Below, piece by piece: positions 1 through 1,366 of a stretch of DNA of 15,829 bases (positions are counted from its first letter, which is position 1; each line of letters starts with the position of its first letter). The stretch spans positions 1 through 15,829 of the forward strand of contig CAWAPJ010000042.1 in the NCBI GenBank assembly GCA_963783885.1, written 5' to 3'. The notes under the pieces were generated by a model. The model did not search any database, was not told where the DNA came from, and was given only the letters and a program-made list of their open reading frames with translations. The position numbers and the translations under genes are program-made. Source of the stretch: Waddliaceae bacterium. Its GTDB lineage: Bacteria; Chlamydiota; Chlamydiia; Chlamydiales; SLFE01.

Positions 1-11
1 GCTACCTAAAC

Positions 12-128
12 TTGTTGTTAAAGTCTTTCGTTGGATTCAGATGCGTAGACTCGATTTGAAGGCAAGGGTAATCCCTTGCCGATAATCGAGGCTTAGCAGA
101 TGAATTCAATGAAAGATTTTAACGACAA
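12..128 (+). repeat. Long imperfect palindrome/hairpin element, copy A
   Basis: 12-39 pairs with 101-128 (24 Watson-Crick pairs + 4 G:T/U). CTCGATT 50-56 pairs with AATCGAG 84-90. The apical core is GGCAAGGG-TAAT-CCCTTGCC at 61-80. Confidence 0.9.
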
Positions 129-169
129 TAGTCTCTATGATACTTCCTTAGCCAAAAAAAGGGGGCATC

Positions 170-1009
170 ATGGAAACTTACGCAACAACAGTTTATGTCA
201 TCAGCGAAGAAATCCTTCGAATTTTGGGGATTAAAGACGATCCTCAATCTCAAATGTCCAACGCAGAAGTGATAACTTTTGCTATTTTATCAGCAAAATA
301 TTTTTCTTGTAACTATAAAATGTCCAGATATTTATGTAAAAGATTACGATTATTCAGAGCTATTTTAAGCAATAGCCGGCTAAATCGCCGAATTCATAAA
401 ATTCCTTGGATTTGTTGGAACGCCATTTTCCGTTTTTTAGCTCTATTTTTTAAGCAAATAAATAAAGATCAGGGTTTTGCTATAGACAGCTTTCCAGTTT
501 CATGTTGTCAGAAAAATAGAATCGATAAACGGAAGGTTTTTCTAGAACGAAGGTATTTAGGTTTCGCAGCTTCTAAAAAGCGTTACTTTTGCGGCATAAA
601 AGTTCATAGGATTGTGACGAGCGAAGGCAAGCCGGTTGAAGTTCTTTTCAAGCCAGGAGCAGTAAGCGATGTAAAGGTGCTCTGGGAAATGAAACTGGAC
701 ATTCCACCAGATTCTAAACTTTATGCAGATGGTGCGTATAATTGCTTTGATTTAGAAGACATCTTGAAAGAAGAACAAATTACATTGCTTGCAAAACGGG
801 GATGTAAAGCAAAGAATAGAGTCCGAACACCAATTGAAGAGAGGGAAATTAGCAGCAAGCGACAGATTGTCGAGACGACATTTAGCTGCATAACAAACCT
901 TTTCCAAAGAACTTTTAAGTTCTGCACTGAACAAGGCTTTTTGATAAAAGTATTCTGTGCAATTCTTGCCTATAGTGTTTCGTTTTTATGCAAAGGGGAG
1001 CTCAGCTAG
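170..1009 (+). CDS. IS982-family DDE transposase (279 aa)
   Basis: N-terminal MSNAEVITFA motif and a DDE-like triad in FAIDSFPV / YADGAY / RQIVETTF. Also GFAASKKRYFCGIKVH, and a purine-rich RBS AAGGGGG before the ATG. Confidence 0.9.
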   Translation: METYATTVYVISEEILRILGIKDDPQSQMSNAEVITFAILSAKYFSCNYKMSRYLCKRLRLFRAILSNSRLNRRIHKIPWICWNAIFRFLALFFKQINKDQGFAIDSFPVSCCQKNRIDKRKVFLERRYLGFAASKKRYFCGIKVHRIVTSEGKPVEVLFKPGAVSDVKVLWEMKLDIPPDSKLYADGAYNCFDLEDILKEEQITLLAKRGCKAKNRVRTPIEEREISSKRQIVETTFSCITNLFQRTFKFCTEQGFLIKVFCAILAYSVSFLCKGELS

Positions 1010-1112
1010 AGCTTACACGAGCACACCATCTACTGCCTGTAGCGCCTCGGCAAGGGATTACCCTTGCCGAGGCGCTACAGTTGTATCTGGCGCACTCGTG
1101 TAAGCTCTAGCT
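1004..1112 (-). repeat. Long palindrome/hairpin element, copy B (possible CTAG/TA-flanked MITE)
   Basis: Perfect 18-bp outer IR (1004-1021 / 1095-1112) and perfect 20-bp inner stem (1037-1056 / 1061-1080) with a 4-nt loop. The 20-nt core is the reverse complement of 61-80. CTAG occurs at 1006-1009 and 1107-1110. Confidence 0.9.
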
Positions 1113-1117
1113 AAGGT

Positions 1118-1366
1118 TTAGGTAGCAATCAGGGTCTGAGGAATGACCTGAAAGCTCTTTTGTTCCAAGGCTCTAACGGCCTTATCCCAATCCGAGCATT
1201 GGAAATACATTTTTCCCTTTTCAACGATCAAGTAAAAAATAACCCCGATCCGCTCAAATATGCCGGAAGGCTGCATGGAATGATTGATAACGCAATTTCT
1301 TACGGACTTTTCCTGGAGCTCATCCAGATTGCATATTCTGACAGTCAAGTCAGTCACACTATTCAT
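1118..1366 (-). pseudogene. 5' fragment of a hypothetical gene truncated by the IS982 insertion
   Basis: Strong SD GGAGGT (1372-1377) lies 5 nt before the ATG at 1366. The last codons (T-L-I-A-T-stop, ACC CTG ATT GCT ACC TAA) are entirely IS right-IR sequence, 1118-1135. Confidence 0.7.

Follow-up and report, generated by a model that had tools for sequence, protein, structure and literature searches.

An insertion sequence of the IS982 family in a Waddliaceae bacterium carries a large imperfect hairpin just inside each of its terminal inverted repeats, and the same module recurs at both ends of diverged relatives. Alignments of these hairpins (A at the left end, B at the right) indicate that selection keeps their pairing, not their sequence, and does so on one strand, the one that runs 5'→3' from the terminus inward. 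This strand is the non-transferred one, and DNA or RNA synthesis coming into the element would have the same sense. Judged from their homology and placement, A and B are integral end modules of a distinct IS982 branch. The explanation that we prefer, with a probability of about 45%, is that the module works in cis, as folded single-stranded DNA, during mobilisation. We infer both that the folding strand is DNA rather than RNA and what would bind it, and when.

An IS982-family element with a hairpin at each end

The window, the whole 15,829-nt stretch of DNA analysed here, opens with an element that in full is about 1144 bp long (Table 1). Its left-most 9 nt are absent because the contig begins at the window start, 9 nt inside the element. 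Ends and target duplications were defined from 36 IR-bounded elements in the genome, most of which have matching flanks (3- or 5-bp duplications). An earlier note on this DNA, made from its letters, had placed the hairpins inside both ends of the IS, and this held. The 11-nt inverted match outside them (1–11 and 1116–1126) is only the inner part of a longer repeat, which other copies extend outward by 9 nt to 20 nt. The right target duplication reads CTGAG if it is 5 bp (CNNNG) or TGA (1137–1139) if it is 3 bp, and 3-bp duplications occur in a congener lineage; with 3 bp, the flanking G/C would belong to the repeat, and the two readings are not separable from sequence. Contigs from other sequencing runs diverge past 1136, in agreement with the right end at 1135. 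Read depth over the element was 15–30x that of the flank in four DNA runs, which were mapped for depth, variant letters and loose ends only; joints and the empty site were not found in them.

Table 1 Features of the element and its right flank in the window
Feature	Position	Strand	Basis
IS982-family insertion sequence	1..1135	+	NF033520 profile, IR-bounded copies, read depth
Left inverted repeat, inner 11 nt of 20 nt (ACCCTGATTGCTACCTAAAC)	1..11	+	Perfect inverted match to 1116–1126
Hairpin A	12..128	+	Folding, covariation in alignment A2, covariance model
Small hairpin over RBS and ATG	134..174	+	Same fold in 8/8 elements tested
Transposase gene, 279 aa, DDE type, IS982 family	170..1009	+	ORF, profile match
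Hairpin B	1001..1115	-	Folding, covariation in alignment A3, A-derived model match
Right inverted repeat (GTTTAGGTAGCAATCAGGGT)	1116..1135	+	Inverted match to left repeat; other copies
82-codon open frame into right IS end, ending within inverted repeat	1118..1366	-	ORF list
Right target duplication copy	1136..1140	.	Matching flanks of IR-bounded elements; left copy outside window

The terminal repeats begin ACCCTGATTGCTACC and are homologous to those of ISLll1 (ACCCGAATTGCTAG) and ISEfm1 (ACCCGTGGTGCTAG). They are thus of the 5'-AC type that is the rule for the family, and the length, the single frame and the short target repeats also agree with the family, for which 933–1282 bp is given, according to the 2020 family review as far as it was available to us (PMC7335449). 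The transposase scores 153.3 bits against NCBIfam NF033520, whose cut-off is 130, and also matches Pfam DDE_Tnp_1_3; IS5 profiles stay far under their cut-offs. Relatives of the transposase with E <= 0.001 numbered 269. Membership of IS200/IS605, a group defined by an HUH (Y1) transposase without inverted repeats or target duplication, is ruled out by the DDE transposase, the 20-bp inverted repeats and the target duplications. Nor does the module match REP/REPIN sequences, which are 20–40-nt palindromes associated with a RAYT (HUH) transposase: it is 115–119 nt long, is bounded by IS982 repeats and accompanies a DDE transposase.

In the window, hairpin A folds at −70.0 kcal/mol on the + strand (z −14.3; 0 of 200 shuffles as good) and at −48.1 on the − strand. 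Hairpin B, taken as 1004–1112, reaches −95.5 kcal/mol on the − strand (z −17.4) versus −82.8 on the + strand. Both therefore fold far better than shuffled sequence, and each folds better on its terminus-to-interior strand. DNA energy parameters give the same strand asymmetry for both hairpins and do not separate DNA from RNA. Moving inward from its base, A comprises an outer stem, a 2x2 GA/GA loop (40–41 with 99–100), a middle stem, a GAA/GA loop and an 8-bp apical stem with its TAAT loop (61–80). In B, the GA/GA loop pairs 1087–1086 with 1030–1029 on the − strand, and the apical stem and loop lie at 1049–1068.

The details in the earlier note were borne out. The identical apical core, GGCAAGGG-TAAT-CCCTTGCC, together with the following GA forms a 22-nt perfect inverted match (61–82 versus 1047–1068), and the 3' GA of the internal loop lies 18 nt from the core in both hairpins. 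The arms are largely dissimilar outside the core and only loosely alike there, with 77 of 134 aligned columns identical when the core is included. The outer stems, described as 28 and 25 bp with all seven non-Watson–Crick positions G:U, measure 27–28 bp with four G:U pairs in A and, in the frame of that note, 25 bp with three in B. The stem of B extends to 28 bp (1001–1115), which adds a fourth G:U.

Pairing is conserved on the inward strand

We surveyed the end regions of the window's element and 28 metagenomic relatives (43–100% transposase identity). An unbranched hairpin of 105–140 nt with at least 41 pairs was present in 44 of the 56 end regions, and the module was found just inside each 20-bp inverted repeat in related elements with 49–100% transposase identity. 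The layout is conserved: the 20-bp repeat is followed at once by an imperfect hairpin of 115–119 nt and then by the element body, both hairpins beginning 0–3 nt past the repeat. From base to tip, the hairpin consists of an outer stem of 28 bp, a tandem G-A/A-G loop set in the motif AGAU...AGAU, a middle stem that varies, a GAA/GA loop and, at the apex, 8 bp of GGCAAGGG:CCCUUGCC. At the tip, GGCAAGGG-N4-7-CCCTTGCC is conserved as sequence, with a loop of 4 to 7 nt.

Compensatory changes were found in 39 of the 47 pairs of hairpin A (alignment A2), in which 93.6% of cells are paired, compared with 36–47% when partners are slid; none of 500 shuffles reached the observed value. Hairpin B (alignment A3) gave compensatory changes in 35 of 42 pairs and 93.7% paired cells, under the same controls. 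The inward strand was the more stable in 22 of 23 A hairpins and in all 21 B hairpins. Transition-type mismatches between the arms, read on that strand, were of the G:U type rather than other in a ratio of 93 to 20 among 22 distinct A hairpins and 73 to 15 among 21 B hairpins. Counted per hairpin, G:U exceeded A:C in 19 A hairpins, with the reverse in 1 and ties in 2, and in 17 B hairpins, with the reverse in 3 and a tie in 1. A few G:U pairs are themselves conserved. A cruciform would penalise G:U and A:C mismatches equally, so it is the single strand that is selected. The earlier suggestion of selection on a strand-specific, single-stranded structure is supported by diverged relatives, in which both covariation and G:U bias are present.

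These results also bear on whether the palindromes are duplex or cruciform DNA sites for a dimeric protein, or the product of neutral concerted evolution between arms. Conservation of the apical motif as sequence would suit either idea, and arm-to-arm conversion does occur, in three copies (C2:83699, C16:22381 and L223). However, the strong one-strand G:U bias is unexpected for a duplex or cruciform, the variable loop length would change the half-site spacing of a duplex site, and the G+C-rich centre would probably disfavour extrusion from duplex DNA. Concerted evolution fares no better, since the asymmetric loops (AGAU on both arms, on one strand) are conserved, yet conversion has erased them in those three copies. 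We regard both ideas as very unlikely. The polarity of conversion was also considered as a sign of inward DNA synthesis and was rejected: two cases run one way and one the other.

A covariance model (R1) built from hairpin A scored that hairpin at 116.8 bits in the window and hairpin B at 70.9 bits on the − strand versus 51.3 on the + strand. It found every B hairpin on the opposite strand, with the − score above the + score in 22 of 22. This opposite-strand homology, together with the start 0–3 nt after the repeat, fits a function tied to the terminus. Of 151 genomes from this chlamydia-like order, 26 carried the module, and a search of plasmid DNA gave no match. When the module was compared with Rfam, as the earlier note had proposed, no family matched at its gathering score; three microRNA-hairpin matches fell below threshold (27–30 bits versus gathering scores of 70–100). 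We regard the module as a new and well-supported family of structured nucleic acids, one that Rfam lacks. The bare 16-nt core is unspecific in a contig search, matching at least 120 stretches in unrelated phyla. Among the core matches listed, only one, in a Parachlamydiaceae record (L062), resembled a relic.

Canonical IS982 members lack the module

Hairpin-less IS982 relatives have homologous inverted repeats, and in five of five the hairpin was absent and there was no room for one. The part of the family review that we drew on, which covers 70 members, records no such feature and gives an end-to-ATG distance of 90–128 nt and a stop-to-end distance of about 20 nt for registered members (PMC7335449). 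Both lines agree with the earlier remark that such hairpins lie outside the usual IS982 layout. In the literature searched, which included passages of that review, subterminal hairpins in IS982 were not described. This clade shares with ISLll1, ISEfm1, ISPasp1-3 and other IS982 elements a DDE transposase, 5'-AC...TTGCTA-type repeats, a length of ~1 kb, a single gene and short duplications; it differs from registered members in the extra ~117-nt structured module inside each repeat.

Solo hairpins as MITEs

The genome also contains nine solo MITEs with the arrangement IR–hairpin–IR, four from A and five from B, as well as two A/B chimeras. The solo elements measure 138–141 bp between 11-nt inner repeats, and most have matching flanks, as MITEs do. 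In a congener, four of the eight loci fetched are solo MITEs of this kind. Each solo retains the asymmetric loops of its IS copy, with no more than the final few bases taken from the opposite arm, which indicates that solos derive from IS ends. Solos and arm-identical copies are template-switch products, which implies that DNA hairpins form in vivo.

Similar to Correia, ERIC and RUP elements and the IS982-derived MITE of Cardinium, the solos are short and geneless, carry their parent's repeats and target duplications, and fold over their whole length; an IS982-derived MITE is already on record, in the portion of the report consulted (PMC9769881). Classical MITEs are deletion derivatives that join a left end to a right end, as the two chimeras do here, whereas the solos are fold-back copies of one end. 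Unlike the parents of classical MITEs, this parent IS has a whole palindrome at each end.

The presence of each hairpin was checked copy by copy, as had been suggested. Both were kept in 13 uninterrupted full copies, and B was wholly or partly deleted in 7 copies with 7 different junctions. No hairpin-deleted form has spread, although this argument is weak because all copies are recent (99–100% identical). These data speak to the idea that the hairpins are useless passengers, either selfish palindromic MITEs nested in the IS ends or the remains of two MITEs that flanked a transposase gene. Solo elements with target duplications do exist, in this genome and at the congener loci, and an origin of the layout by MITE-flanked capture is conceivable. 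Against this, the modules occupy the same place at both ends and co-diverge with the element down to about 49% transposase identity, the solos come from IS ends rather than the reverse, and, given seven independent deletions, long palindromes would not persist without selection. We therefore consider passengers of this kind improbable. Of the earlier proposal of a family of mobile palindromic elements, the solo MITEs support mobility, but the hairpins are not foreign insertions, being integral and co-diverging with the IS.

A MITE family that lacks a transposase, from a genome of the same family, carries the same apical motif (22 aligned copies, 162–185 bp). Its alignment folds at −49.5 kcal/mol on one strand versus −10.3 on the other. 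Variants shared between copies were G:U in 16 cases and A:C in 3 (p 0.004), whereas singletons numbered 16 and 14; 14 singleton compensatory changes mean that the singleton class is not purely post-insertion. The pattern is what one would predict if the fold counts during propagation rather than in the inserted copy or in expression of the transposase. This family has different terminal repeats and a weak match to the model (36–38 bits), and its homology with the window's module is uncertain.

Expression signals and read-in transcription

A TAnnAT box (TATGAT, 136–141) lies 7 nt past hairpin A, and 17 of 20 listed relatives have such a box 6–11 nt, mostly 7 nt, after the hairpin base. It is likely to be the −10 element of the transposase promoter; a consensus promoter scan found no inward promoter at either end and left the box unflagged. 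The small hairpin downstream pairs the RBS (159–165) and ATG (170–172) with 134–149. With the likely −10 box and this hairpin both downstream of A, the native transposase mRNA would lack hairpin A, and the small hairpin would be the element's own block on translation of read-in transcripts. In masking the RBS and ATG of transcripts started upstream, it is like the fold-back inhibition of IS10 and IS50. The 117-nt modules are unlike that system: they are separate from the small hairpin, are found at either end and leave the translation signals untouched.

Three roles in expression were rejected. Neither hairpin is followed by an inward U-tract, and no T-run follows A in the 20 listed relatives, which rules out an intrinsic (Rho-independent) terminator; the sole hit of a terminator scan within the hairpins was the apex of B on the + strand, and its tail was weak. 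A promoter rebuilt by extrusion of hairpin A, from TTGCTA of the repeat and the TAnnAT box, would have a spacing of 14–15 nt, which is too short. An Frpo-like −35/−10 pair in the stem was also dismissed, since B does not share the TTG found at the base of A.

Another possible explanation, which we judge less likely than a DNA role, takes up the earlier suggestion of a block on read-through transcription: the module would be an RNA insulator. A search of 20 sequencing runs turned up no RNA. A host transcript reading into the element would form the hairpin, a long duplex with purine loops, and be cut, for example by RNase III, or its polymerase would stall. On the left this would uncouple the transposase gene from promoters outside the element, and on the right from antisense read-in. 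At each end, RNA reading in would have the sense of the favoured strand; G:U pairs are frequent, with some of them conserved; and the conserved hairpin that masks the RBS and ATG downstream of A indicates that the element has evolved against read-in. The placement is also apt, A lying between the repeat and the likely promoter and B between the stop codon, at which it starts, and the repeat. In this window the open frame at the right end, which has no Pfam match and probably represents a host gene that the insertion interrupted, reads straight into B, and its transcripts would carry B in the stable sense. RNase III was found in five of five other module-bearing genomes tested. IS200 has a comparable pair, an end hairpin accompanied by a second hairpin that masks the RBS.

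Several observations do not suit such an insulator. Besides the absence of U-tracts, the outward strands likewise form long duplexes (−45 to −85 kcal/mol), cutting by a duplex-specific nuclease would account for neither the strand bias nor the conserved loops, and the fixed 28-bp stem and the position flush with the repeat are left unexplained. The bias among shared variants in a MITE family with no gene to protect fits poorly. RNase III did not turn up in searches of the window's own genome, and nor did SbcD, but with that genome only 88.9% complete these blanks are uninformative.

A proposed role for folded single-stranded DNA in mobilisation

If the module instead acts as folded single-stranded DNA, a fork or repair synthesis coming in from the element end would leave the inward strand exposed. 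The transposase, or host proteins of replication or priming (the genome has PriA), would then recognise the hairpin beside the repeat, and transposition would thereby be coupled to DNA synthesis. Such a mode of action would resemble that of attC sites, IS608 ends or plasmid single-strand origins. In favour of this reading are the conserved pairing and strand bias, the homology of the two ends, the likely absence of hairpin A from the native mRNA, the bias in the transposase-less MITE family, the failure of deleted forms to spread and the formation of DNA hairpins in vivo. A stronger claim, which we hold only tentatively, is that the ends of this IS982 branch must fold as single-stranded DNA and be read by the transposase or primosome, tying transposition to a fork or to entering synthesis.

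attC, ssoA, ssi and Frpo are imperfect palindromes of 60–150 nt that are conserved in structure, not in sequence, and are active as folded single-stranded DNA; in attC sites and single-strand origins, conserved unpaired bases mark the active strand. The likeness to our module is the strand-specific structural conservation, whereas the partners of those sites are tyrosine recombinases or RNA polymerase plus the primosome. We know of no sites of this type at the ends of DDE insertion sequences, and of no DDE transposase that uses folded single-stranded ends. IS200/IS605 elements are alike in having imperfect hairpins just inside their ends that are recognised on one strand. By contrast, theirs serve an HUH (Y1) enzyme without inverted repeats or target duplication and both lie on the same strand, whereas here a DDE enzyme and inverted repeats accompany hairpins on opposite strands.

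Further points weigh against a DNA role. Hairpin-less IS982 members presumably transpose, which makes the module an accessory, and accessories are more often regulatory. Tolerance of G:U, together with a few conserved G:U pairs, is more typical of RNA. In a solo MITE just one end is offered the favoured strand, although such lineages seem to have moved.

How IS982 elements transpose is described as uncharted in the 2020 review, as far as consulted (PMC7335449), and a clade whose two ends bear large structures, strict in shape and specific to one strand, offers a concrete handle on the pathway. The conservation suggests that a folded single strand may be needed at each end of these DDE-type elements, which is not described for the IS982 family. 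If true, this would bring attC- or IS608-like logic to a transposase class thought to be limited to duplex ends. If the active form is DNA, this would be the first DDE insertion sequence to read folded single strands, and also a means of sensing replication in bacteria that may be without Dam-type control; if it is RNA, the module would be a symmetric insulator of a new kind, directed against read-in transcription. In both cases, the module accounts for the recurrent fold-back MITEs in the reduced genomes of chlamydia-like symbionts.

The hairpins lie inside an IS982-type element

The transposase of the element scored 153.3 bits against the NCBIfam IS982 profile (cut-off, 130). The 11-nt inverted repeat reported in an earlier note on this DNA (1-11 and 1116-1126) does match, but it is only the inner portion of a 20-nt repeat, ACCCTGATTGCTACCTAAAC; in all other copies in the window's own genome (G000; 2.16 Mb, 46 contigs, 88.9% complete, with the window as contig C42) it extends outward by GACCCTGATT / AATCAGGGTC. 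Compared with ISLll1 (ACCCGAATTGCTAG) and ISEfm1 (ACCCGTGGTGCTAG), the terminal repeat reads clearly as IS982 type. The flanks match as a 5-bp CNNNG target duplication; counting the G/C as part of the repeat shortens it to 3 bp, and the string is identical under either reading. Insertion of the element into its own sequence also occurs: in hairpin A's conserved CTTAGCAGATG motif, the CTTAG harbours one copy (G000:C19:58040), and the CTTAG at IS positions 147-151 harbours a solo-B element (G000:C35:2852), so the preferred target is present inside the module.

Elsewhere in the window, a 617-aa frame (11930-13783, +) has a C-terminal match to the HECT (ubiquitin ligase) domain (31.7 bits; cut-off, 23.9) and is a candidate eukaryote-like effector of this chlamydia-like genome.

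Features of the element, its copies in G000 and the strand test on hairpins of relatives
Feature	Position or number	Remark
IS982-family insertion sequence	1-1135	left-most 9 nt lost to contig start
Transposase gene, sole gene of the element	170-1009	279 aa; NCBIfam IS982 profile and Pfam DDE_Tnp_1_3 matches
Hairpin A	12-128 (+)	
Hairpin B	1001-1115 (-)	
Full-length copies, uninterrupted, carrying A and B	13	one further copy is interrupted
Copies that have lost all or part of hairpin B	7	no two with the same junction
Solo IR-A-IR elements	4	
Solo IR-B-IR elements	5	
A/B chimeras	2	internal-deletion derivatives of the ordinary kind, with the join in the core
A hairpins	22 distinct	G:U-type on inward strand 93 vs A:C-type 20
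A, per hairpin	22	G:U > A:C in 19, ties 2, G:U < A:C in 1
B hairpins	21 distinct	G:U-type on inward strand 73 vs A:C-type 15
B, per hairpin	21	G:U > A:C in 17, tie 1, G:U < A:C in 3

Consistent with the earlier note, hairpins A and B have a 22-nt core in common, two GA/GA loops with the 18-nt spacing and seven G:U pairs in their outer stems. Hairpin A folded at -70.0 kcal/mol on the + strand versus -48.1 on the -, and hairpin B at -95.5 on the - versus -82.8 on the + (frame 1004-1112) or -100.4 versus -83.6 (frame 1001-1115). Z-scores were -10 to -17, and no shuffle folded as well. The asymmetry persisted with DNA parameters (A, -37.4 versus -27.6; B, -55.6 versus -50.6). At 1069-1072, a hairpin B variant (extra T, A>C, G>A) that weakens the perfect 20-bp apical stem of the window's copy was present on a high-depth IS contig in three of four DNA runs (X1, X3 and X4), and run X2 carried another variant there.

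The hairpins had been described as no part of the known IS982 layout, and this holds. In hairpin-less controls (ISLll1, ISEfm1, a cyanobacterial member and two metagenomic relatives at 35-37% identity), the distance from repeat to ATG was 90-113 nt and from stop to end 18-38 nt where repeats could be placed, and the best local hairpins reached -6 to -24 kcal/mol. The part of the 2020 family review covered here (70 members, 933-1282 bp; PMC7335449) names hairpins solely for frameshifting, lacks the word stem 'palindrom' and is silent on such end hairpins. An ordinary IS982-derived MITE has been described in Cardinium (PMC9769881).

One module is conserved at both ends and selected on one strand

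Protein searches returned 269 transposase relatives, the best 120 of which share 54-99% identity. An alignment of 32 relatives, used to scan metagenome contigs, gave 40 loci. We set aside 11 whose matches were partial or weak, and folded the regions at the two ends of 28 others and of the window's element (56 regions). In 44 of the 56, the fold was a single hairpin without branches, 105-140 nt long and with 41 or more pairs. Of the other 12, some ends are cut by a contig or disrupted by further insertions, B is deleted in L170, four hairpins exceed 140 nt because the repeats pair too, and the A of L171 is separated from the gene by an insertion; the model later located it at 64-180. Both ends in all lineages follow one plan: a 28-bp outer stem, a GA/GA loop within AGAU...AGAU, a middle stem, a GAA/GA loop, an 8-bp apex and a 4-7-nt loop. 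The sequence of the outer stem varies freely between lineages.

Compensatory changes occurred at 39 of 47 pairs in an alignment of 19 A hairpins and at 35 of 42 in one of 20 B hairpins (- strand). Pairing was retained in 93.6% and 93.7% of cells, respectively, versus 36-47% and 37-47% when partners were slid, and was attained by 0 of 500 shuffles in each alignment, which are counts rather than probabilities because the sequences are related. A covariance model trained only on A hairpins found every B on the - strand, scoring above the + strand in 22 of 22, and had no match in five hairpin-less IS982 elements. By this measure, A and B are one module in inverted orientation and part of a long structured terminal repeat. 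Within the same order, 26 of 151 genomes (counting that of the window) and 23 of 111 genera have the module, often in pairs of copies on opposite strands with about 1 kb between them. Two loci at 43-44% transposase identity (L191 and L192) have end hairpins of another design, about 122 nt and without AGAU loops, which suggests that the module has itself diversified within the family.

We then aligned each 5' arm to the reverse complement of its own 3' arm, which needs no energy model, with hairpin limits taken from the folds of the inward strand, the strand running 5' to 3' from each terminus into the element. The G:U excess lay on this strand at both ends (Table), and of the two strands it was the more stable for 22 of 23 A and for 21 of 21 B hairpins. 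For B the bias falls on the antisense strand, so mutational pressure arising from transcription of the transposase gene cannot account for it. A site acting as duplex or cruciform is less likely, as it would not yield the observed G:U bias. Together with the covariation, these results bear out the proposed selection on a strand-specific single-stranded structure, and show that the module is an integral, ancient structure at both ends of one IS982 branch, maintained by selection on pairing in single-stranded form.

The module gives rise to fold-back MITEs

The core motif had 50 sites in G000 and a reversed control pattern none. The earlier note had suggested mobile palindromic elements; solo elements, gene-less MITEs of one hairpin between repeats, do exist, but as derivatives of the IS-end hairpins, since they retain the asymmetric loops of the IS copy. 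Nested selfish MITEs are thus a less likely origin of the module. In solo C3:7004 just the final 3'-arm bases are copied from the 5' arm; with the retained loops, this makes the solos look like snap-back products formed at the hairpin base. In C2:83699 (A), C16:22381 (B) and L223 of a congener, one arm is overwritten by the complement of the other and the loops are erased; neutral arm conversion is a less likely account of the module as a whole. The solos and converted copies show that the palindromes fold in DNA in vivo and are unstable, and that the module is a source of fold-back MITEs.

In a 27-nt relic (G000:C35:3821-3847), TTGTCG is all that separates two inner repeats, the remnant of a solo element that has lost its whole palindrome. 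In a metagenomic relative, two extra modules within the transposase gene (L178:939-1055 and L178:1126-1242) are probably nested solo elements.

In G004, a genome from the same bacterial family as the window's, no relative of the transposase was detectable with the query used. The genome carries a diverged MITE family (L237-L263; 49 matches; no autonomous partner identified). Compared with the window's element, these MITEs have different terminal repeats, CCTGGATATTTCATGA, and a target of the CTAG/CTAA type; they share the apical motif, CGAAGGGAAGGG...CCCTTTCCGAG, and at 36-38 bits are weakly homologous to the module. We aligned 22 copies of 162-185 bp, dropping L261 (deletion) and L262 (missing repeat). 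The alignment folded at -49.5 kcal/mol on one strand versus -10.3 on the other. At consensus Watson-Crick pairs, variants common to at least two copies were G:U in 16 cases versus A:C in 3 (p 0.004), whereas singletons were 16 versus 14, a class that is not pure, as it includes 14 compensatory changes. If propagation depends on the one-strand fold, one would expect just this: a bias in the variants passed on by source copies and none among later changes. The MITEs themselves have no gene that would need protection.

Possible roles of the folded strand

In 17 of the 20 relatives listed, a conserved TAnnAT box lies 6-11 nt (mostly 7) past the base of hairpin A. Beyond it, the ribosome-binding site and ATG are paired within a small hairpin. 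We infer that the box supplies the -10 element of the transposase promoter, which would place hairpin A outside the native mRNA. With its start within the small hairpin, that mRNA would be open to translation; RNA reading in from outside would bear this hairpin in full and stay silent, as in IS10 and IS50. The element would thus already have its own read-in defence.

The main rival explanation, which we rate as somewhat less probable than a DNA role, is that the module is an RNA insulator. The G:U pairs, the hairpin placement and the read-in context are consistent with it, and RNase III is present in five of five other module-bearing genomes tested. The enzyme is found in the congener G001. 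However, RNase III (TIGR02191, PF14622) was not found in the 88.9% complete G000, and no U-tract was found after either large hairpin in the inward sense. SbcD (TIGR00619) was likewise not found in this assembly; the absence of RNase III and SbcD may be an assembly gap.

We tentatively favour, at a probability of roughly 45%, a role in cis for the folded DNA: the inward strand, which is the non-transferred strand, may act as a DNA hairpin in mobilisation. PriA is present in G000. This preference draws on the symmetry of the two ends, on hairpins that lie flush with the repeat and keep an unvarying geometry, on the G004 MITEs and on the separate translation block that would already handle read-in RNA.
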